A stretch of 44,963 nt of DNA from Escherichia phage BF9. The stretch lies in the sequence record NC_073083.1; one strand, given 5' to 3'. A program made the position numbers and the translations under genes. Of the stretch, positions 2,908 through 44,963 are shown in pieces; the stretch's first letter is position 1; each line of letters starts with the position of its first letter. The notes under the pieces were generated by a model. That model did no database searches, was not told where the DNA came from, and saw only the letters and a list, made by a program, of their open reading frames with translations.

Positions 2908-5900
2908 TTACCACGTCCCAACTTTCACCCTACCTCCTCCAGGTAATGGCACGTTAATGCCGGTTGCGTCGATCTGTACCGACCCGCCGGAGAAACCGAA
3001 GTTACCAGTGGTCGCGAACAAGTTGCCGCGTACCGTTACGTTGTTGAACTCCGCCCAGCCATCCTTCGCGATACGCCAGCCGCTGCTACCTGGATTCCAG
3101 TTATTCGATTGCAGCGTGTCCGTGATCTGTGCGAAGTTGATGGACGCGTTCTTGATGCGCGCCGTGTCGATGTACACCTGACCGCCGTCAACGATAAACG
3201 CAGACGAAAGTGACCCATTCGACGGGTGCATGATGTAGAACTGGTCCGCCTTGAACGCGATGCTGGATTTAACCGCACCGCCTTCCACCACAACTGAAAG
3301 CTGCATACCGGCATCATAGTAAGTCCCGTTATACGTCACGCCAGCATTAAGGCTGTATGTGGCACTACCGCCAGCATGGTTAAACGAAGACGTCATCTTC
3401 TGCTCGATAGCTGCGGACTGCTGACCGAACTGCGCCGCTACCTGGGTCTTGTACTCCGCCAGCGCTCCCGCTACGTCTGCCGTTGCCGTTTGTACCTGCT
3501 GGATGGCAGCTTCCTGTTCCCCGAACTTAGCGGCAACAGTTTGTTGGTACTGGGCGAACGCTTGTTCGTGCGTGCTTTGCGCGGTCTGCAACGTGTGGAT
3601 CGCCGCTTCCGCATCGTCAAGGCGAGTACCGATCAACGTCTCAAGTTGCGCGACCGCCTTGTGGGCATCCGCCGCCACGTTATACGCTACCTTGATTTCT
3701 GCGTAGATCCCCTGGTACTCGGCGCGGGCGTTAAACAATTGCTGTGCGTCCGTGAGCATGGCTTCATAAATGCCTTGCGGCATGGTGTCGATCGCTTCCT
3801 GGAAGCGTTTACCATCCTCTGAAGTCAAGAACTCGTCGTCCAACCCCTTCATATACTCGTCAACTTTGTCACTCACCTGGCCTTCAAACGGGGCTGACCA
3901 GTCCGACAGGTTGCCGATTTTATCCGCTACGCGGGCGCGCAACTGCTGGTAGATCCCGAACTCCAGCGACGTTTGCGCATAGTCCGATCCCGGATATGGG
4001 ACGTTGGTCAAGAACTTCCATTCCGTTTCGCCCCGCTTGCGCACTTCAAGCTCGGTGTAAGAGATATCCGTCGCGGCGTTGTTGTGGTTCCACTTCCACA
4101 AAATTTGGTGAAGGCCCGAAATCGCGTTGGTGATGATAGGCGCGTTAAGCCCGCCGAGACGACCTTCGATCGGCGTGATGGCAGACGACACCCACGGGGA
4201 TGAAATCTCACCCATACCGATTGCGCGGACGCGTGCCTGGTAGTTACCGGAGAACACGTTAGGGATGTGAGCGCCGTTCGATGCCGTGCGAGGGATGTTC
4301 ACCCAGTCGTTACCCCACTGGATTTCCATATTCTGCAAGCTGGTACGTCGCCACTGGATTTCATATACAACGGCATCCTTCACCGGCGGGAAAACAATAT
4401 CCACGTTGGTGATTAGCTGGCCTTGCGATGAAATCTGCGACGGGGTGATGGTCACGGACTCCGGCCCCTTCATTACGCCGTCAGGTACTTGCGTAAAGAT
4501 GCCTGGGTCAAGGCGAGCGCCATTATCAACGGCATCATATTTGCTATCGTTGTACTCGATCCCGCGCACTGAAAAAGTGCTGGTAGAGTCGTCATATTCC
4601 AGGTCGGTGATGCGGAACTTCTGCAACTGGATATCATCGCCATCAACGCAAAACGGCTGGTCTGGAATCGGGTCGGCGTCCAGTGCGGTTTTTAGCGTAA
4701 CCTTGTTGCCGTTGACGCTGGCGATCTCGCGAGTCTCCACATTACCGCTATCGGTGCGTACCAGGAATTTATCGCCAGGGCGGAACGTGATTTCGCTGTC
4801 TGTGTTCAGCACCGTCCGCGTGCCCGGATCTGACAACAGGCGACCGCCGCGTGTCTCGAAGCCGCCAGAAATGTTTGTATCGGCGATCGCTACTACGCTA
4901 CCCGGAATAAAGAATAGTCCTTCCATGCCAACCTTAAAGCTAACTTGCTGGTCAAGCTGGTTGGAGATTAGCGCCCAGTGCCCCCGGCGTTGCGCTTCTG
5001 ATTCACGCGTACAGCCGATCGCCGTTATATCGAGACGGTTAATCTTATGGCGGCGTACCAGTTCGACACGTTGCCCCGTTGCGATGGCATCCTCATAGTG
5101 GTTCTTCGGGTTGCCGTATGCTACCGCGAACGTGGAATAGCGAGTTTTCTGGCTCCCTGACGCGTAGTCGAATCTGCCATCAATAACAGAGGCGTTGGTG
5201 ATAGTGTGCGATACCGCTGCGACCGGCTGGTCACTTACGATATTCAACATCTGGTTGCCCCACCAGGTCATACCGGCAAAGATGGCGGCTAAATCCTTAA
5301 GCACGGTCCAGGCGTCGGTCTGCGACTGGATGTACATATCATTCTTAAATCGGATTTCCTGCCCGCCGTTGCCGTCGCTGACAAGCTGGTCACAGCGCTG
5401 CGCAATCTGGTAGAGCGCGTACCGGTTCAGCATTTGCGGCTTGATCCTACGACCGAGGCCGAAGCGCTCAGTAATACAAATATCGTACCAGTGCCACGCA
5501 GGGTTGTCCGTCCAGGCGCGTTTAAACGTGCCATCCCAGTCGCCCGAATATGTATGATTAATCGGGTCGTAGTTGTTCGGAACCAGCACTTTGCGGCCTT
5601 TGCACTTGATGGACACCCGAGGGATGTTCTGAAACGCTTTAGCGTCGAACTCCACGAACAACAGCGCGGTTAGCGGGTAGCGCAGGCGGGCGTCGATAAT
5701 CTCAGTGATTGATTGCACCTGAATATCGTTCACCACTTTTGCCGATGTGGAATCAGCCGTTGTGCGGTGCACTTCCACGCGCCAGCCAGTGTTAACGTTC
5801 GGCGGTAACTCGATGCGGTGGTCTCGCTCGTACAGCGACATTGTTTTACCAACGGCAGCAAATGTAAACTCGCGCGGATCTGCGTTATCCGTATACACAA

Positions 5901-11764: not shown

Positions 11765-11827
11765 TATGCAGTCCCCTTTTTTATGCAGTTGCCGGTTGAC
11801 ATTGTATCAGCGAATTTAAAACAAACC

Positions 11828-12150
11828 TTATTCAGTCTCAGACGAGGGGGGCCACTGACCCCCGTCTAGTCTGAAAGACTGGGCTTTGTCCCGCTTGTCC
11901 CGATCGGCTGAAAACCGCGGCAGCACTGGCGGGGACGGGGCGCCGTCCCGCTTTGTCCCGCATCTTGTTTGTCCCGCTTTTTGTCCCGTTTGTTTTATGC
12001 ACGAAATCCGAATAGGTATGCACATTTGTGGGGTGGGACAAAACGGGACGTCCCGATTGTCCCGCTTTTAGATTATGCAATGGAAGTGAGTAGGTATGCA
12101 CATTTGTGGGGTGGGACAAAACGGGACATCCCGTTTTGTCCCGCTTCATT
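11828..12150. repeat. Iteron region A: about 67 bp hairpin leader followed by 10 or more GTCCCG(C) heptamers in both orientations, including a roughly 74 bp tandem duplication
   Basis: Leader ttattcagtctcagacgaggggggccactgacccccgtctagtctgaaagactggg, then ttgtcccgc copies and gggacaaaacgggac inverted pairs. Near-identical leader at 28280. Non-coding in my reading; track ORFs across it are repeat-driven. Confidence 0.8.
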
Positions 12151-17699: not shown

Positions 17700-17750
17700 C
17701 GCTTGCAATCCGCGTATTGGTTGCACTATATTGGTTGCACACCAACCACG
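17700..17750 (+). promoter_or_regulatory. Promoter with tandem TTGGTTGCA motifs driving the rightward gene inside the head module
   Basis: TTGCAAtccgcgtaTTGGTTGCACTATATTGGTTGCACaccaacc gives TTGCAA-N17-CTATAT. The same 21 bp core (CTATATTGGTTGCACACCAAC) recurs in reverse orientation near 28085. Confidence 0.5.
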
Positions 17751-17761
17751 AGGACACACAA

Positions 17762-18526
17762 ATGAGACTGACTAAAGACATTAAAAACCAGATCCTGGCT
17801 AACATCCTGCGCGACCACGAAATAGCTACCGAAGCCAAATCAATCATGATGGACTCACGCGACCTGGCGTACGCCATTACGCTGGACTGTATGCCGGAAG
17901 GCATTCGCACATTCGCCGAGCTACTCGCGCGCATTGAAGCAATCGGCGATGATCCGTCGCAGATGTACGGCGTCTGTGTATACACCAATAAGGCGACGTA
18001 TAGACATGACGCCGACAACCCATATGGTATAGGCTGCGTTTACGACGCCACTTTCGAAATCAACGCAGGCGGAAACGTCCGTACCGTGTCATTGAGCGGA
18101 GACGGACACCGATTCCGAGTACATCGCGGATACTGGGAGTATAAATACATGAATAAACTGTCTCCCGATCTCGGCGATATTGTGCCAGGGTATGAGGAAA
18201 TTTTGTTAGCGTCAGTGTGCGAAGTCGACGACGACGGGAAAGCGCTGCCGATATATCTTCCGCGCGGTCGAGTAGACTACCCTGCGGACCATGATTTCTG
18301 TAAGCGCCTGGACCGTAACGACAAGGCCCGCCGCGAGTTGCGAGCTAAGTATGACGCGTTCAAACTAACCGTTACCGGCGTGCTGGATATGCACAATACC
18401 GATAAGAAGCTGATCAAGGCGTGGCCTGAAGTGGAACAGTTCATTCCGCACCCTGACAAGCCGAAGTCCACGGCGGTGGCGCTGGACGTGAAGACGCTAA
18501 ACGAGATTTGCGGTATTCCGCGCTAA
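17762..18526 (+). CDS. Hypothetical protein (254 aa) on the opposite strand within the head gene block; accessory (moron-like) gene
   Basis: Internal ATG (MRLTKDIKNQ) of track ORF 17717..18526 with RBS GAGGA; own promoter upstream and terminator downstream; no motif recognised. Confidence 0.6.
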   Translation: MRLTKDIKNQILANILRDHEIATEAKSIMMDSRDLAYAITLDCMPEGIRTFAELLARIEAIGDDPSQMYGVCVYTNKATYRHDADNPYGIGCVYDATFEINAGGNVRTVSLSGDGHRFRVHRGYWEYKYMNKLSPDLGDIVPGYEEILLASVCEVDDDGKALPIYLPRGRVDYPADHDFCKRLDRNDKARRELRAKYDAFKLTVTGVLDMHNTDKKLIKAWPEVEQFIPHPDKPKSTAVALDVKTLNEICGIPR

Positions 18527-27352: not shown

Positions 27353-27501
27353 TTGCTCAGTCTCCGATAGTTCTTGTTCAGGGTAAATTGGCTGATAGTG
27401 TGGCGAGATTTGGTTTTTGGGTGCATGAGCGTTACGCTTCCGTCCCCCTCCCACACCACAAGATAAATCAGACCGGTTGCCTTGCTCTGAACTTTGATCA
27501 T
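27349..27501 (-). CDS. Hypothetical small protein (50 aa), not in ORF track
   Basis: MIKVQSKATGLIYLVVWEGDGSV...; its 17 nt initiation region (GGAGACTGAGCAAATGA) is identical to that of the next gene, with ATGA overlaps at both ends. Confidence 0.4.
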   Translation of the reverse strand: MIKVQSKATGLIYLVVWEGDGSVTLMHPKTKSRHTISQFTLNKNYRRLSK

Positions 27502-27767
27502 TTGCTCAGTCTCCAGTGTTTGCCTACCCGCTCAACGGCGGGCTTCCGGCGTAATGTAATACGTATTCCCATTGGTTGCAAGGAAGTCCGCACCCTGAAA
27601 TCGTGTTGTGCTGCGAACTGGTGCAAGTAGCGAGTCTGCGTCAACGGCTTCACGTCATCGCGATAACACCAGAATACAGATTCGCCATCAACCGCATTCT
27701 CAGCCCATATTCGTATGCAATGCAGTGGAATATGCCACGAAAGCTGTTTCGCTCGTCTGCGGCTCAT
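27498..27767 (-). CDS. Hypothetical early protein (89 aa)
   Basis: Track ORF, translationally coupled to the downstream small gene. Confidence 0.4.
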   Translation of the reverse strand: MSRRRAKQLSWHIPLHCIRIWAENAVDGESVFWCYRDDVKPLTQTRYLHQFAAQHDFRVRTSLQPMGIRITLRRKPAVERVGKHWRLSK

Positions 27768-27776
27768 TTTGGCCCC

Positions 27777-28067
27777 TTATTTCGCAAGCTGGGCGAATAG
27801 TTCGCGCTGGGCTTTAATCCGGGCGACGTTTGTCACTGCCGTCTCGCCGATCCCGAAGCGATACGCCAGGCGCTCACGGGCAAAGGCAAGCGCGTAAGCC
27901 CTGATAGCCGCGCGCAACGGCTCGGGGTCTTCCATGCCCGCGGTCGCATCCATGATCGCAAACCAGGTCGGAGCTACCAGGCGCTCCCACGGTGCTCTGC
28001 CGTTGGTGTATCTCACTTCGACCGGTTTTGCCACGGCCATTGTGTAATTCCAGATTAATGCTCTCAT
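27777..28067 (-). CDS. Hypothetical early protein (96 aa)
   Basis: Track ORF; first gene downstream of the 28068..28600 control region; RBS GAGGA. Confidence 0.45.
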   Translation of the reverse strand: MRALIWNYTMAVAKPVEVRYTNGRAPWERLVAPTWFAIMDATAGMEDPEPLRAAIRAYALAFARERLAYRFGIGETAVTNVARIKAQRELFAQLAK

Positions 28068-28279
28068 CGTTCAGTCCTCATGTTGGTGTGCAACCAATAT
28101 AGCAGGGTGCCAGGGCGAGCGCAACCAAGATTAATCACGCGCATGAAAAAGTTGATCGCTATCTGCTGTAACTGCAAACCGCATTTTTCACTCAACATAA
28201 TACAACCCGCATTGGTTGCCTAGTTCATCGACGACCGCACTTCGCGTCATGCTGCCGTGTATTTTGCAATCCCCGGATT
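28068..28279 (-). promoter_or_regulatory. Leftward promoter/operator region with several TGCAACCAA motifs
   Basis: Minus strand reads CTATATTGGTTGCACACCAAC (28085..28105), identical to the core at 17727..17747; further copies near 28123 and 28211. Confidence 0.45.
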
Positions 28280-28445
28280 TTATTCAGTCTCAGACGAGGG
28301 GGGCCACTGACCCCCGTCTAGTCTGAAAGACTGGGGTTTGTCCCGCCTGTCCCGCTCCTCTGGAAGCCGCGCCATCCGGGGCGGGACTGGGGTGCTGTCC
28401 CGCTTTGTCCCGCCCCCGGTCTGTCCCGCTTTCTGTCCCGCTTAC
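28280..28445. repeat. Iteron region B: same hairpin leader as region A (one mismatch) followed by 6 or more TGTCCCGC copies and one inverted copy
   Basis: ttattcagtctcagacgaggggggccactgacccccgtctagtctgaaagactggggtttgtcccgcctgtcccgc...ctgtcccgctttctgtcccgc. Lies about 160 bp 3' of the primase-helicase stop; three more GCAACCAAT motifs occupy 28480..28600. Confidence 0.8.
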
Positions 28446-28601
28446 TTTATGCAGTAAAACTGCATAACTATTCATTATATTTACACTACACGGCAACCAA
28501 TACGACCGGATAAAAACACTCAAAATGGCAACCAATGCGCGCAAATTTTAATCTTTTAGCGATATGGGAATTCCCATATCGGCAACCAATACACGCACAA
28601 A

Positions 28602-30866
28602 TTAATCTTTCAGGTCGTCATCGGTCGCCGAAAGCGTGATGGGTATATTCGTTTTGATGACGATATTAGACGACCCATAGATGGCCCCTGTGTGTGGGTC
28701 TGTGTAAAACCCAAGCACGCCGCGCTCGACCATATCGTCTATTGCCTTCGTCGATGTGCCACCTTTTGCCAATCCCGCCTGGCGGACAATTGCCGATTTA
28801 CTGAATCCGGTATGGTCCGGGTTATCTTCCATCAGTTTTTCCAGTGCCGCATAAAGCACTTTCTCTTTTTCGTTGCGCGGTCCTGCGGCGTTCTCATCCT
28901 TAACTGCGGCCTTGCCAGCGGACTTCGCCTGTTCGATGGCGAACGGTGCCAGGGCGACCGGTACGAGGTACAGAGTCTCGTCGCGTGGTGTGGATGCAAT
29001 TGGCTTGACGTCCCAACCGGCAACTACGTCGCCGAAGTCTGGCCCGGTGCTGGTGGACTGGTGCGACGCGAACGCTTCTGACTTGCGGAGATCCACCTTC
29101 ACCTTGCACTTGAGCAGGACGAAGCCACGCGGCGCTTGCTTGATGCCGTTACGTGATTTTTCGTGGTACAGGTTCAATTGTCCGGGCTGGTTGTCGTCCG
29201 GCTGTTCCAGGAAGAAAGCTGAATCGACAGCACCATGAAGCGCACCGGACCCGCGCGGGGATCTGCTGCCGTTTGCACCTTTCGCCGGGTGGTGGATGAC
29301 GCCCGCACTGCCACCTGTATTTTCCGCAATGGCTTTCAGCGCTTTGACCACTTCACCCATATCGCTGGCGTTGTTCTCGTCGAACGGTTTAGCATCGGCG
29401 GACCGCAGCGCAACAGTCTGGTTGAGTGAGTCGAACGCCACCAGGCCAACCGGCTCGCCGTTAGCGGTGCGGTTGATGAAGCTGATAACTTCACGCAAGC
29501 CGGATTTGCTGGTGATATCCCAGCCGCGTGATTGCAGATCGATAATGTGCAGCTTGTCCAGGTCGTGCTCATATTTAATCTGCAATGCTTCTTTGCGCTG
29601 GTTAGAGGCTTCACCACCTTCCGCGTCGAAATAGAAGCAATGAGACTGGACGACCTTCGCGCCACCGAACGGAATCCCCGCGGCAACCGCACCCATTTGC
29701 CCCAGCACGTAGAACGATTTACCGATGTTCGACTCACCCGCCATATACCAGGTTGATTTAAAGTTAACCAACCCCTCGATAATCGGGTCGTGCTTACTGA
29801 ACAGCGCAACCGGCTCGTTATCCAGATCCGCATCGGTGCACACGCCGTATTCTTCGCCGTCGCCAACCGCATCAACAATATGTTCATATAAGGATTCGAC
29901 TTCCTCGTCGTCCAGCCCTGGGAGGATGGCGGCGATTTGCTTACGTGACATGTTGTGCGGTTCGACGTTCAGGTGGTCCGGTATCCCGATGAGGCGTAGC
30001 GCAAGGTGCTGGTGTCTATTTAGCTCCGAGCAACACTCGTTGCCGGTGTGCATACACTTGAAACGGATCTCGCCATCCTTAACCATGATAGCGGTGGACC
30101 CTTCGCCGCTGTGCAGGTGTTCGTTTGGGCATGGCACTTCATAACCACGACCGGACGACAGCGGTTCTAATCCCGCCTGGAAGCACCAATCCAGAATACC
30201 GTCCGCCACGCCGTCATCGCCCTGGGTTAGTTCGCGGCGTACTTCCTCTTTTTCCACTCCCAGCTTATCAGCCAGGCGAAGCAGACGACGGACGCGGGCG
30301 CGCTTGCCGTAGTGGCACTTAACGACAGACTGCTGGTGTGGCAGGTACATCAGGCGGTTTGTGTCTTTCGTGCAATCGTCGAAGTCCACATCTGACAGAC
30401 CCAGTTGGTGTAATAGTGCATACTGGACGCGGCCCAGGTCTTCAGCCGGTACGGGCTTATCTGTTAGCACCAGGAAACGAGCGCAACGCGTGCCGCCTTT
30501 CAGCGGGTGGCGGTCGCCGGTAGTGGTGTGAAATACATGTTCCAGTCCCGCGTCGATGAAAGCCTTACGGCAGCGGCGCAGGGTGCGGGTGTCGGTGCGG
30601 TCAATATCGAAGAACAGGATCGAGCGGTCCACAGCACTGGTCTTGCGGCGTAAGCCGTCACTGGTATACGCCACGATGCCATCGGCCTTACGCTTACGGC
30701 GCGCATACTCGGCTTTATCCTCGGTCTTGTTGATATGCACCGAGGAGATTTCTTTCGCGTCATTGATGAATTCGAAAAATTCATCGGTAGTCATCTGGAA
30801 GTTTTCCGCCCTGGCTTTTTCGCCTTTTTTAGCGGGTCGTGTTACAGCGAATTTAATTAAGCTCAT
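28602..30866 (-). CDS. DNA primase-helicase (N-terminal primase-polymerase-like domain, central P-loop NTPase, C-terminal putative DNA-binding domain)
   Basis: 754 aa; acidic FFDIDRTD motif in the N-terminal domain, Walker A-like MAGESNIGKSF, Walker B-like LVAFDS, and a C-terminal region of about 150 aa. Confidence 0.65.
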   Translation of the reverse strand: MSLIKFAVTRPAKKGEKARAENFQMTTDEFFEFINDAKEISSVHINKTEDKAEYARRKRKADGIVAYTSDGLRRKTSAVDRSILFFDIDRTDTRTLRRCRKAFIDAGLEHVFHTTTGDRHPLKGGTRCARFLVLTDKPVPAEDLGRVQYALLHQLGLSDVDFDDCTKDTNRLMYLPHQQSVVKCHYGKRARVRRLLRLADKLGVEKEEVRRELTQGDDGVADGILDWCFQAGLEPLSSGRGYEVPCPNEHLHSGEGSTAIMVKDGEIRFKCMHTGNECCSELNRHQHLALRLIGIPDHLNVEPHNMSRKQIAAILPGLDDEEVESLYEHIVDAVGDGEEYGVCTDADLDNEPVALFSKHDPIIEGLVNFKSTWYMAGESNIGKSFYVLGQMGAVAAGIPFGGAKVVQSHCFYFDAEGGEASNQRKEALQIKYEHDLDKLHIIDLQSRGWDITSKSGLREVISFINRTANGEPVGLVAFDSLNQTVALRSADAKPFDENNASDMGEVVKALKAIAENTGGSAGVIHHPAKGANGSRSPRGSGALHGAVDSAFFLEQPDDNQPGQLNLYHEKSRNGIKQAPRGFVLLKCKVKVDLRKSEAFASHQSTSTGPDFGDVVAGWDVKPIASTPRDETLYLVPVALAPFAIEQAKSAGKAAVKDENAAGPRNEKEKVLYAALEKLMEDNPDHTGFSKSAIVRQAGLAKGGTSTKAIDDMVERGVLGFYTDPHTGAIYGSSNIVIKTNIPITLSATDDDLKD

Positions 30867-30876
30867 TGCCGTTGCC

Positions 30877-31206
30877 TTACTTCGAAGTTTTGTTATTGCG
30901 TACCCAGGAGCGCACGGTGCTCTGATTAATTCCCGTCAACTCGGCGATCATCGCCCATGACTTCCCCTCATCGCGCAAACGGATAACCTGCTTTTTGTAT
31001 TCTTCCATTTCTTCATTGTGTTTTTGCAGCTTGCTTGCTGCCGTGCCGTTGAGCAATTCCAGCTTCGCGGTAAGCTCCTTCTCCGCACGCGATAATCTGG
31101 ACACTTCAAATAACAGAGTATCCACCGCATTTGTGTAATACCAGGATTTACCCGCTTCGCCGCGGATTGCATTAGATAACACTTCAATTGCTTCTTTGAT
31201 ATTCAT
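30877..31206 (-). CDS. Helix-turn-helix DNA-binding protein (putative transcriptional regulator)
   Basis: 109 aa; C-terminal GKSWAMIAELTGINQSTVRSWVRNN is HTH-like; first gene of the leftward operon. Confidence 0.5.
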   Translation of the reverse strand: MNIKEAIEVLSNAIRGEAGKSWYYTNAVDTLLFEVSRLSRAEKELTAKLELLNGTAASKLQKHNEEMEEYKKQVIRLRDEGKSWAMIAELTGINQSTVRSWVRNNKTSK

Positions 31207-31608: not shown

Positions 31609-32127
31609 ATGTTTGAGCAAATCGTAAACCTGATCACTCGCGGCGTAGTAGCACTGGAAACCATCGCTAAACATTATGAAACCGTTGGCGCTGCCGTTGG
31701 TAAGCAGGAAGACAAGAAGCCGTCTAAGGCCAAAAAAGAAGTTGTCGAAGATGACGACGATGAAGCCGAAGACGAAAAACCGGCGAAAACTAAAAAAGCC
31801 CCGGCGAAGGGTAAGGCCAAAAAAGAAGTCGTAGAAGATGACGACGACGAAGACGCCGAAGACGAAAAACCGGCTAAGGCTAAAAAAGCACCGGCGAAAG
31901 GCAAAGGTAAGAAAGATGCCGATCCGCTGGCGGAGATGCGCGACGAAATCAAACAGTATGCCGCGATTATCGCCGGTGGTGATGACGACGATGCGAACGA
32001 CGAATTCGACGACCTGCTGGAATCGTTCGAGATCAAATCAATCGCCAAGCTGGAAGATGACGACGTCGAAGACTTCCACACAGAGTTAAAAGAAATCGTC
32101 GAAACCTATTTCGAACTGGAAGATTAA
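31609..32127 (+). CDS. Highly charged acidic/basic repeat protein (172 aa); first rightward early gene
   Basis: Two copies of KKEVVEDDDDE(D)AEDEKPAKxKKAPAKGK, then a DDDD-rich C-terminus; strong terminator follows. Confidence 0.6.
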   Translation: MFEQIVNLITRGVVALETIAKHYETVGAAVGKQEDKKPSKAKKEVVEDDDDEAEDEKPAKTKKAPAKGKAKKEVVEDDDDEDAEDEKPAKAKKAPAKGKGKKDADPLAEMRDEIKQYAAIIAGGDDDDANDEFDDLLESFEIKSIAKLEDDDVEDFHTELKEIVETYFELED

Positions 32128-34281: not shown

Positions 34282-34371
34282 CCGCTTAGGCGCAACCAAG
34301 TAGATTAGCAACCAAGCCGAACGGGGTGGCTCACAATAACCCCGATACATGTGAAAATGAGGAATTGGAAA

Positions 34372-35100
34372 ATGGCTAAAGTCAACCTGAAAAATGTGCG
34401 CGTATGTTTCCTTAAAATTTGGGAACGCGACACCCCTAAACAGGATGGTCAAAAACCGGCATACCGTGCAGTGATTCTTCTTGATAAAGAAGATCCGCAG
34501 GTGGACAAAGTGGAAGCGGCAGCGCGCGCAGTGCTCACCGACAAGCTGAAATCCGAGAAGAATGCTGATAAGTGGATGGACCGCCACTACGCCCAGGATT
34601 CGAAGGAATGCGCAGTCCGCGACGGTGACGAGCGCGACGAAGTGACCGAAGAATTCGAAGGCATGTTGTACATCAACGCCAAATCGTTCAAACAGCCTAT
34701 CATTCAAACGTCACTCGGCGAGAAGCAGACTGAACAGGGTCTGACCATCGACGGCGACGAGATTGAAGGCCAGGAGATCTACTCCGGTTGTTATTGCAAC
34801 GTGTCCCTTGATATTTGGGCATGGAACAATACCAACGGCAAGGGTCTCGGGGCGGGCTTGCTGGGTCTGCGATTCCGTGAAGACGGCGAAGCCTTCGGAG
34901 GTGGCGGGTCTTCATGTTCCGACGAAGACCTGGACAACGATGACGAAGACGAAAGCCCGCGTAAGTCCAAAAAGTCAAAACGTCGTGATGACGATGACGA
35001 AGACGACAAGCCGCGTAAGTCCAAAAAGTCCAAGCGCCGCGATGACGACGACGAAGACGACGACGAAGACGAAGCACCACGTAAACGTCGCCGCCGTTAA
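34372..35100 (+). CDS. Single-stranded DNA-binding protein (DUF2815-like) with repetitive acidic/basic C-terminal tail
   Basis: Start at MAKVNLKNVRVCF (RBS GAGGA), internal to track ORF 34351..35100; C-terminus carries two copies of PRKSKKSKRRDDDDEDD. Sits between the nuclease and polymerase genes. Confidence 0.5.
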   Translation: MAKVNLKNVRVCFLKIWERDTPKQDGQKPAYRAVILLDKEDPQVDKVEAAARAVLTDKLKSEKNADKWMDRHYAQDSKECAVRDGDERDEVTEEFEGMLYINAKSFKQPIIQTSLGEKQTEQGLTIDGDEIEGQEIYSGCYCNVSLDIWAWNNTNGKGLGAGLLGLRFREDGEAFGGGGSSCSDEDLDNDDEDESPRKSKKSKRRDDDDEDDKPRKSKKSKRRDDDDEDDDEDEAPRKRRRR

Positions 35101-44551: not shown

Positions 44552-44687
44552 CCTTCCAGCTTCTCCACTTTCCGCAACAGGTGAACGAAGGCGGCGCACA
44601 GATCCATCAACAGCACGTTACTATCGAGAGTCAGCACATCGTCTGTGTACCCGATTTCCTTTCGGTCGATTACAACTTCGTTCCCTT
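44552..44687. repeat. Extra tandem copy of the 136 bp unit that equals window positions 1..136
   Basis: Exact match read directly in the sequence; the next copy starts at 44688. Confidence 0.85.
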
Positions 44688-44963
44688 CCTTCCAGCTTCT
44701 CCACTTTCCGCAACAGGTGAACGAAGGCGGCGCACAGATCCATCAACAGCACGTTACTATCGAGAGTCAGCACATCGTCTGTGTACCCGATTTCCTTTCG
44801 GTCGATTACAACTTCGTTCCCTTCCTCGTCCACCCCCTTGATATCCTCATAAATGGCATAACCCGGCAGCAAGTGTACGTATTCTGGGTCAATCCTTGCC
44901 AGATCCTGTGCGATAAGGCCGTATCGCTGTACGTCCGACTCCTTATCCTTGAACATTGCCGGA
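44688..44963. repeat. Terminal overlap: duplicate of window positions 1..276 (one mismatch, C at 44945 versus A at 258)
   Basis: Read directly in the sequence; encodes the tail fiber C-terminus (track ORF 44621..44956, minus strand). Confidence 0.9.

Follow-up and report, generated by a model that had tools for sequence, protein, structure and literature searches.

A conserved repeat-and-hairpin module with origin-like anatomy downstream of the primase-helicase gene of Escherichia phage BF9

In the genome of Escherichia phage BF9 (record NC_073083.1), the 28068-28600 region lies between the stop codon of a primase-helicase gene and the first small gene of a leftward block, and it contains a dense set of repeats and a hairpin. 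What does this stretch do for the phage? We addressed this question using the whole 44,963-nucleotide sequence (hereafter, the window), which is a Dhillonvirus genome (HK578/SSL-2009a-like siphoviruses of E. coli), together with its relatives; 157 phage records matched the region 27700-29000, with a best identity of 92.5%. Judged from sequence comparisons, our results support that the block is a conserved cis-acting module, whose anatomy is origin-like because iterons, an AT-rich stretch and a hairpin adjoin the gene of a primase-helicase that bears a winged helix. We estimate at roughly 0.55 the probability that 28250-28600 serves the phage as its cis-acting origin of replication or as one of a pair of sites that cooperate in replication.

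Unless stated otherwise, the parts of the locus are described along the minus strand, which is the gene strand. The module at ~28250-28600 is referred to as copy B, and a second one, at 11765-12150, as copy A (element A). Copy B was compared within the genus using an alignment of 18 Dhillonvirus genomes. Its parts followed one order (stop codon, M sites, AT-rich stretch, iterons, hairpin, CACGGCAGCA box with an inverted GGCAACCAATGCG, ~90 bp of variable sequence, promoter, ribosome-binding site (RBS) and ATG), and both the order and the spacing of the module parts were constant. In the window, the gene and the module parts were located as follows.

28602-30866, minus strand: primase-helicase gene, 754 aa; AAA_25 (Pfam, E 5.9e-19), PHROG 3228.
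28483-28593, minus strand: three ATTGGTTGCC ('M') sites directly past the stop codon; relatives carry two or three copies, syntenic.
28493-28501, 28528-28536 and 28582-28590, plus strand: GCAACCAAT motifs, from a sequence scan.
28560-28581, no strand: 22-bp perfect palindrome CGATATGGGAATTCCCATATCG within a 54-bp duplicated unit, from an inverted-repeat scan; only in genomes with the duplication.
28445-28500, minus strand: candidate unwinding element, AT-rich by GC content; it includes the GAATAGTTATGCA box and, at 28447-28467, the palindrome TTATGCAGTAAAACTGCATAA.
28340-28441, minus strand: iteron array of four direct GCGGGAC repeats, one inverted, a ~25-bp spacer and two direct; same in the 18 genomes.
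28285-28333, plus strand: three-tier hairpin, with a higher predicted stability on this strand (antisense to the genes) than on the other.
28208-28259, no strand: inverted M site and CACGGCAGCA box (28250-28259), from inverted repeats, bracketing the core downstream.

Copy B begins ~160 bp past the primase-helicase stop codon, and seven GCGGGAC copies are packed within 102 bp. Read as GTCCCGC, the six direct copies lie at 28340, 28349, 28397, 28407, 28423 and 28435 and the inverted one at 28381-28387. A genome-wide search for 7-mers occurring at least five times within 220 bp returned the copy B array, its counterpart in copy A (11.9 kb) and, around 34.9 kb, coding repeats, with nothing else; a short repeat array like that expected of an iteron origin is thus present in both modules, which hold the only such clusters outside coding repeats. 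Copy B also has the adjoining AT-rich element: the 100-bp window from 28466 showed a GC content of 0.35, the third lowest in the 45-kb window. The palindrome in this stretch reads TTATGCA-N7-TGCATAA, and its GAATAGTTATGCA box is also conserved in Cornellvirus-like lineages. Folded as RNA, the hairpin had a minimum free energy of -28.4 kcal/mol (z-score -4.2 versus shuffles); within the genus its stems were invariant and its loop varied freely. Two or three CGCATTGGTTGCC sites follow the stop codon depending on the genome, the third M site arising from a 54-bp tandem duplication found in about half of them. On the other side, the inverted M site at 28208-28220 (GGCAACCAATGCG) is an exact 13-nt inverted repeat of the upstream M site at 28527-28539, so that the core is bracketed. 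A preliminary description of the locus had proposed a GTCCCGC array with a hairpin leader at 28280-28445 and three motifs at 28480-28600, and all of them were recovered within these limits. It had taken the locus for a single origin, overlooking copy A, whose parts are listed below.

11765-12150, minus strand: copy A, in the 385-bp gap from the tail chaperone stop to the tape-measure start (11764).
~12010-12146, minus strand: two 78-bp direct repeats, each with GCGGGAC and the palindromic CGGGACGTCCCG; copy A only.
11888-11989, minus strand: copy A iterons.
11833-11881: copy A hairpin.
11801-11809, minus strand: extended -10 TGATACAAT after the copy A module, invariant in the alignment.

The two copies lie 16.5 kb apart in the same orientation. 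They share 56 identical bp (28280-28335 and 11828-11883), and ~195 bp comprising the hairpin, two repeats, spacer, inverted repeat, four repeats and the TGCATAA box are ~85% identical to 11828-12030. Copy A was found in 17 of 17 aligned Dhillonvirus genomes and in every metagenomic Dhillonvirus contig retrieved. Between genomes, identity was 0.89 for A against A, 0.87 for B against B and 0.80-0.82 for A against B, the iterons and the hairpin being conserved and the internal spacer diverged. Since identity within each type exceeds that between the types, the duplication is old and both copies have been maintained; the alignments indicate that both have been kept since before the sampled genus diversified. 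Exactly two fixed positions were occupied in the 157 records, without target-site duplications or further copies. Apparent third copies in some records were discarded, as they came from contigs starting and ending inside copy A (overlapping ends). Circular Dhillonvirus metagenome assemblies (L250, L256, L258, L259 and L262) often start and end there too, probably because the exact 56-bp repeat breaks the assembly graph, which is of practical relevance for anyone assembling these genomes. DnaA boxes in copy A were also considered and rejected: of the three matches to TTATNCACA (at most one mismatch), the CACA part is not conserved in relatives and only TTATGCA is. Outside Dhillonvirus, Cornellvirus FSL SP-031 has a single cluster. 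Exact 14-15-nt repeat patterns searched against IMG/VR for distant second copies returned mostly chance hits, and the L029 contig returned the one cluster already known.

We then consider how far the module extends beyond the genus, using the loci of primase-helicase relatives taken from IMG/VR, GenBank phages and public assemblies. Downstream of the homologue, the same architecture was present in Cornellvirus FSL SP-031, Hafnia phage TS33 and 12 viral or metagenome contigs (L027, L029 and L032, with 37-44% protein identity, and L232-L240, with 46-70%). The shared order comprised motif copies, the GAATAGTTATGCA box, three or four direct and one or two inverted repeats, a spacer, two direct repeats, the three-tier hairpin, an inverted motif-like box and a promoter. 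The repeat itself, of 7-8 bp, differed by lineage (GCGGGAC, GTGTGGCA, GTGTGCCA, GGTGCCA, TCCGACA, AGGGATA, GGGGAT, GGGGAGA, TTGCGAGT and GGGGATC), with four types among proteins all 66-70% identical to that of the window. Read from the sequences, such lineage-specific repeats are the pattern expected of initiator/iteron pairs.

A hairpin of ~50 nt followed the last two iterons in 12 of the 12 lineages folded, with z-scores of -1.5 to -4.7 versus shuffles. Its stems differed in sequence and kept the fold (e.g., AGUCU/AGACU, CAUCUA/UAGAUG, UCCUC/GAGGA and GAGGGA/UCCCUC). Conservation of the hairpin was judged by this per-lineage folding and shuffle z-scores; RNAalifold on a MAFFT alignment of the Cornell-like hairpins gave no coherent structure, the sequences being too divergent. 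In 10 of the 12 lineages the hairpin was stabler on the strand antisense to the genes (on average by 3.1 kcal/mol with RNA parameters and 1.05 with DNA parameters), which argues against a role in mRNA.

Two further observations concern these loci. A TGATTTATAAGGA box or its reverse complement occurs in the inter-iteron spacer of L234, L235, L236, L238, L239, L240 and L213, where it could be a site for a host bending protein; Dhillonvirus spacers are GC-rich, unlike those of the lineages bearing this box. In Kagunavirus (L211 and L215, 2640-2760), GTGAATAGT boxes lie in divergent promoters by a reverse helix-turn-helix (HTH) gene downstream of the primase-helicase; the same downstream locus of Jerseyvirus L212 (2640-2760) was examined alongside. 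The Kagunavirus GTGAATAGT is related to the GAATAGTTATGCA box, which precedes the iterons in the Dhillon- and Cornell-like modules.

What protein could read such repeats? In the primase-helicase, an archaeo-eukaryotic primase (AEP) fold at ~aa 1-205 is followed by a Cys/His-rich region and then by a RepA-like RecA-type helicase, and the C-terminus (~aa 666-737) is modelled as a winged helix. By sequence, the protein matches only AAA_25 (aa 357-531), the family of RepA-like helicases, and the helicase also matched the RepA structure 1g8y weakly. Profile searches with the N-terminal domain found no match in Pfam, NCBIfam or PDB, and the fold search alone identified it: the AlphaFold2 model of aa 1-350 (pLDDT 84) had as its best Foldseek match the AEP domain of S-2L PrimPol (6zp9_A, E 2.7e-5), followed by other AEP enzymes. 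According to this model, the N-terminus adopts an AEP primase-polymerase fold. In both clades the protein varies most in its winged helix, with identities of 0.43-0.55 versus 0.75-0.9 elsewhere. L232 and L237, which share GCGGGAC with the window, have cores closer to those of the GTGTGGCA lineages and winged helices closer to that of the window. At equal core identity, winged-helix identity was 0.60-0.67 when the iteron was shared and 0.43-0.65 when it was not (Mann-Whitney p = 0.015, for pairs that are not independent). The other nearby candidate, the small HTH protein encoded at 30877-31206, was rejected as the iteron binder because its HTH is invariant across lineages with different iterons.

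Some additional features of this gene were noted. The winged-helix segment GFSKSAIVRQAG-LAK-GGTSTKAI (aa ~685-715; 28605-28880, minus strand) matches every repeat of the TALE-like protein BurrH (GFSQADIVKIAGNxGGAQ), with a summed E of 2.5e-37 and weak single repeats (best E 0.2); this likeness may be a convergence of the helix-turn-helix motif. In phage bob (L001), a 155-bp repeat_region is annotated at 5066-5220, in the 3' part of the primase-helicase gene, and the match of bob to the window is ~90 bp longer than that of other genomes; the repeat may be a duplication in the variable C-terminal region. A plasmid search with the primase-helicase returned only two partial matches to the helicase domain and one 44-kb E. 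coli record (34% identity), probably of a phage genome misfiled among plasmids.

Altogether, these elements suggest how replication could start at the module. The C-terminal winged helix of the primase-helicase would bind the 7-bp GCGGGAC iterons (four direct, one inverted, spacer, two direct). The protein would thereby be concentrated at the site, and its RepA-like helicase domain would assemble on the adjoining AT-rich stretch and open it. Once single-stranded, the displaced strand antisense to the genes would form the three-tier hairpin, a single-strand initiation signal at which the N-terminal AEP primase-polymerase domain would prime or be loaded. DNA synthesis begun at this site would proceed leftward, co-directionally with transcription. 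Copy A, which has the same iterons and hairpin plus the 78-bp repeats with palindromic iteron pairs, would be a second origin or a partner required in cis, like the crr of satellite phage P4. A fuller version of this scheme is tentative and rather doubtful: it would make BF9 a lytic siphovirus with two-site replication, combining an origin by the initiator gene with a distant crr-like partner between the tail chaperone and tape-measure genes, in which a fused AEP primase/RepA-like helicase/winged-helix protein reads lineage-specific 7-bp iterons and primes on a strand-specific hairpin, with synthesis co-directional with transcription.

Compared with known systems, the module is best read in kind, with slightly better than even odds, as an iteron-type origin having a second cis site, as in P4 ori/crr, and a single-strand initiation hairpin, as in RSF1010 and pRN1. 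In the annotated P4 record, crr is found immediately past the alpha gene as two 120-bp repeats that contain 8-bp repeats in both orientations, and ori is 4.7 kb off. Both phages have one multifunctional protein with primase, helicase and C-terminal winged helix, short repeats of 7-8 bp in both orientations and two separate repeat clusters. One cluster is directly 3' of the gene, and one is built on a pair of long direct repeats, with units of 120 bp in P4 crr and 78 bp in copy A. However, P4 alpha combines a Toprim primase with an SF3 helicase, whereas the protein here has an AEP fold and a RepA-like RecA-type helicase, and the winged-helix domains share no sequence homology. No conserved hairpin lies beside the repeats in the P4 record. 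In addition, the simpler cluster is here the one by the gene and the long-repeat cluster is distant, the reverse of P4, and the sites are 16.5 kb apart instead of 4.7 kb.

In the IncQ plasmid RSF1010, iterons, an AT-rich region and hairpin initiation signals are likewise found in a single origin (oriV). The RSF1010 iterons are 20 bp long and all direct, unlike the 7-bp direct and inverted repeats of the module. RSF1010 uses two hairpins on opposite strands, whereas each module here has one and both modules have the same orientation. RepC binds the iterons, RepA is the helicase and the AEP primase RepB' acts on the ssiA and ssiB hairpins (PMC8567376). The combination of a RepA-family helicase and an AEP-class primase is common to both systems, and the RSF1010 primase needs its hairpin site (PMC8567376); these are three separate proteins in the plasmid and one fused protein here, and the two primases share the AEP fold class only. 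As for the Sulfolobus plasmid pRN1, a repressor gene precedes a prim-pol/helicase/winged-helix gene with a stem-loop origin just downstream, a layout that its authors also noted in some bacteriophages (PMC4234260). The gene order is thus the same: a small DNA-binding protein (the orf56 repressor in pRN1), the prim-pol/helicase/winged-helix protein (ORF904 in pRN1) and the origin, here a candidate, directly downstream; the stem-loop is also conserved in structure and not in sequence. In contrast, pRN1 has an SF3 helicase, no iterons and a stem-loop of ~100 nt, and the phage has an AAA_25 helicase, iterons, a ~50-nt hairpin and a second copy. By the features compared, the module is not a member of the P4 or RSF1010 families and probably not of that of pRN1, because the primase and helicase classes differ, the winged helix is not homologous to that of P4 alpha and there is a single hairpin per module. 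Lineage-specific repeats by an AT-rich stretch, there bound by the initiator, are likewise a property of the lambdoid ori/O protein pair and of iteron plasmids, in which specificity also shifts between close relatives. In lambda, the ori is located within the O gene, with four 19-bp repeats, and the helicase is that of the host, whereas here the 7-bp repeats are outside the gene and both helicase and primase are phage-encoded.

Several observations weigh against a replication origin at this locus. Jerseyvirus and Kagunavirus, with a ~30% identical primase-helicase, have no module there and carry a terminator and a reverse HTH gene instead. Copy A has no marked AT-rich stretch, its minimum GC being 0.45. 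The link between winged helix and iteron is weak, as 12 of the 21 iteron-correlated residues fall in aa 612-748, which was not significant by Fisher's test against control partitions. Aligned by hhalign, the winged helix and the P4 alpha origin-binding domain gave a probability of 0.15%, with no sequence homology, and homology to the P4 alpha C-terminus was rejected on this value. The turn in cumulative GC skew falls at 30-32 kb, the point of divergent transcription, instead of 28.3 kb; because gene orientation switches at this same place, the skew was set aside as uninformative on the origin and lends it no independent support. Finally, since every lineage has a promoter after the module, transcription-factor sites are another possible reading of the repeats. 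Origin and transcriptional control roles could also coexist. The promoters and genes involved are the following.

28082-28128, minus strand: putative sigma-70-like promoter for the small leftward genes; -35 TTGCGC (28119-28124), 17-bp spacer, -10 TATATT (28096-28101).
17700-17747, plus strand: promoter of the rightward gene at 17763; TTGCAA, 18-bp spacer, TATATT and two M copies, with 21 bp in common with 28082-28102.
27777-28067, minus strand: first small leftward gene, 96 aa, function unknown; PHROG 9839, E 2e-43; RBS and ATG conserved.
30877-31206, minus strand: small HTH protein, 109 aa, sigma-70 region-4-like, just upstream of the primase-helicase gene; C-terminal HTH invariant.

The promoter at 28082-28128 has the layout ATTGGTTGCR-N17-TATATTGGTTGCAC, followed by the RBS and ATG of the next gene. 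In the 18 genomes its hexamers and M copies were invariant, and the spacer varied in sequence with a constant length. M (TTGGTTGC) copies cover the -35 and the -10/+1 region. The -10 matches the consensus at 5 of 6 positions and the -35 at only 3 of 6, which is why a strict sigma-70 consensus scan called nothing in 27500-28900. Its 21-bp segment at 28082-28102 (minus strand) is identical to CTATATTGGTTGCACACCAAC at 17726-17746 (plus strand). This identity had been noted in the preliminary description one position off, as 17727-17747, which matches at 20 of 21.

Across the window, GCAACCAA occurred 22 times versus 1.8 expected, a count reached in 0 of 100 shuffles. The 22 TTGGTTGC copies lay mostly at sigma-70-like promoters on both strands; in a typical pair one copy provides the -35 (TTGCAx) and the other lies in the spacer by the -10 or overlaps the -10 as TATATTGGTTGC, and at 34292-34315 the copies are inverted. 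The same promoter and motif design recurs in relatives. From these positions, TTGGTTGC copies probably mark promoters across the genome, and their placement appears operator-like. We therefore regard promoter and TTGGTTGC motifs as a layer separate from the iteron core: the motif would be a genome-wide promoter/operator element that controls how the small leftward genes are transcribed and possibly also transcription passing through the origin. Based on its sequence, the sigma-70 region-4-like HTH protein is a candidate TTGGTTGC binder, its HTH being invariant in all lineages that share the motif. Its proposed role as the operator protein was not confirmed, since Edwardsiella phage eiAU and contig L238 have the identical motif with an unrelated HTH_3 regulator at the HTH position. 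The expected overlap of origin, promoter and operator at the locus held in part: an origin-like module, a sigma-70-like promoter at its downstream edge and the operator-like TTGGTTGC are all there, but the promoter does not overlap the iteron core. Because it is placed ~160 bp downstream of the hairpin, a coupling of replication with early transcription is speculative. Nor does the block stand at the very 5' end of an early unit; it is embedded in a long array of leftward genes, with those for the HTH protein and the primase-helicase before it.

Other motif observations are given here for completeness. TTGGTTGC positions, usually paired, include 1628, 17717/17731, 25160/25183, 31404, 34292/34308, 38520, 41462/41479 and 43377/43389, and SECphi18, with 20 copies, and Ioannina, with 22, look syntenic by eye in counts and positions. 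None of the three GCAACCAAT copies upstream was accepted as a promoter, as the sole nearby -10-like hexamer is mis-spaced and not conserved in a divergent sub-clade. In eiAU (L213, 2700-3620), ~900 bp of non-coding sequence follow the primase-helicase gene and hold nine TTGGTTGC/GCAACCAA copies and a 27-nt inverted repeat (GCCCCGGGGGCACTTATTGATTTATAAGG ... CCTTATAAATCAATAAGTGCCCCGGGGC, arms ~230 bp apart), with no clear heptamer iterons visible.

The main rival explanation is a transcriptional control region, in which the 7-bp repeats would bind a phage transcription factor switching the promoter that follows (28082-28128 after copy B, TGATACAAT after copy A) and the hairpin would be a terminator or insulator closing the HTH/primase-helicase unit. 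A good sigma-70 promoter after the module in all lineages fits this explanation, as does the position of both copies upstream of blocks that need timed expression (small and lysis genes for B, tape-measure and tail genes for A). The distance from repeats to promoter, however, varies from ~30 bp (A) to ~160 bp (B), and the only nearby candidate regulator, the HTH protein, is invariant where the repeats differ. Moreover, the module goes with the primase-helicase gene and not with any given downstream gene, the downstream genes being mosaic. As for a terminator, Cornellvirus-like hairpins are followed by the gene-strand U-rich tract UUAUUCAUUUAU, but Dhillon-like lineages have no U-tract. In the window the hairpin has internal loops and a gene-strand tail reading GAGACUGAAUAAAAUCC, lacks the GC-rich unbroken stem and immediate U-tract of rho-independent terminators and was not called on either strand by a terminator scan. 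The greater stability of the antisense-strand hairpin in most lineages also counts against this rival. We consider this explanation unlikely, although it fares better than the others.

A structured non-coding RNA or RNA-level signal has a smaller chance still. The long leftward transcript would carry the element twice as a nut/put-like antitermination site, or an antisense small RNA would be made from the plus strand. Compatible with this are the shared orientation of the two copies inside a single long array of leftward genes, a hairpin kept with compensatory changes and a GGA-containing repeated motif that could bind an RNA-binding protein. Nevertheless, the strand asymmetry of the hairpin favours the antisense strand, counting against an mRNA element, and no conserved promoter for an antisense RNA was seen on reading the sequence. 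The inverted and palindromic repeats (CGGGACGTCCCG) point to dimeric binding to duplex DNA, and FSL SP-031 has the single copy mentioned above. Rfam 15 gave no match in the window at the gathering threshold, and hits at E<=1 were at chance level (mir-606, SCARNA11).

It is very improbable that the module is another kind of DNA-level cis site, such as a packaging site (pac/cos-like), a recombination hot spot or a self-copied small mobile repeat. Its presence in two copies and the frequent assembly breaks in copy A could suggest so, and the layout of repeats, inverted copy, spacer and repeats resembles terminase-binding sites such as lambda cosB. But some 5 kb separate it from the terminase genes, its linkage to the primase-helicase gene is constant from genus to genus, the exact 56-bp repeat explains the breaks, and two fixed positions without target-site duplications give no sign of mobility.

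The weakest alternative, that the block encodes small proteins, is hardly credible even though some annotators, including those of the SECphi18 record, call minus-strand open reading frames (ORFs) at 28064-28198 (44 aa) and 28290-28544 (84 aa) as coding sequences. The short ORF matches PHROG 23498 and its stop codon overlaps the start of the next gene (ATGA); the long one has no match in Pfam or PHROG. In the 18 aligned genomes, diversity at codon positions 1/2/3 was 0.13/0.11/0.11 for the short ORF and 0.18/0.14/0.09 for the long one, with no third-position excess, compared with 0.09/0.02/0.27 at the end of the primase-helicase gene used as control. Both ORFs were interrupted by frameshifts or stops, or had lost the start codon, in 5-6 of the 18 genomes. 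Conservation in the short ORF (37-44 aa) was promoter-like, since it overlaps a promoter-type segment with two invariant blocks and a spacer fixed in length and free in sequence. This pattern indicates that 28068-28600 is non-coding and that the two ORFs annotated across the module in public records are probably spurious, in agreement with the initial view of ~530 bp without a convincing gene.

Repeats elsewhere in the window were also found. A 136-bp unit occurs 2.0 times in tandem with 100% identity at 44552-44826, near the window end; it may reflect a genuine duplication, or else an artefact of assembly or terminal redundancy. In-frame tandem repeats rich in Asp/Glu/Lys codons lie within ORFs at 31725-31898 (90 bp x 2) and 34937-35061 (54 bp x 2.3), the former in a gene of 172 aa, oriented divergently to the HTH gene and conserved in all related lineages.

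The module represents a concrete and testable origin candidate for Dhillonviruses (157 records in the phage collection), Cornellviruses and their relatives, which are widely used in phage therapy and in studies of anti-phage defence; no account of the origin, the promoters or these elements of these phages was found in searchable genome papers. Functions that are split over three RSF1010 proteins appear fused in one. Siphoviruses normally lack a spacer where the conserved copy A lies, and this second copy could reveal how replication and late gene expression are coordinated in a lytic phage. The lineages also offer a natural series of paired protein domains and repeat sequences in which to study the evolution of initiator specificity. 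If the two-site scheme is true, the rapid switching of iterons (GCGGGAC, GTGTGGCA, GTGTGCCA and GGTGCCA at ~70% protein identity) would constitute a replicon-specificity code, which would keep co-infecting phages off each other's initiator.

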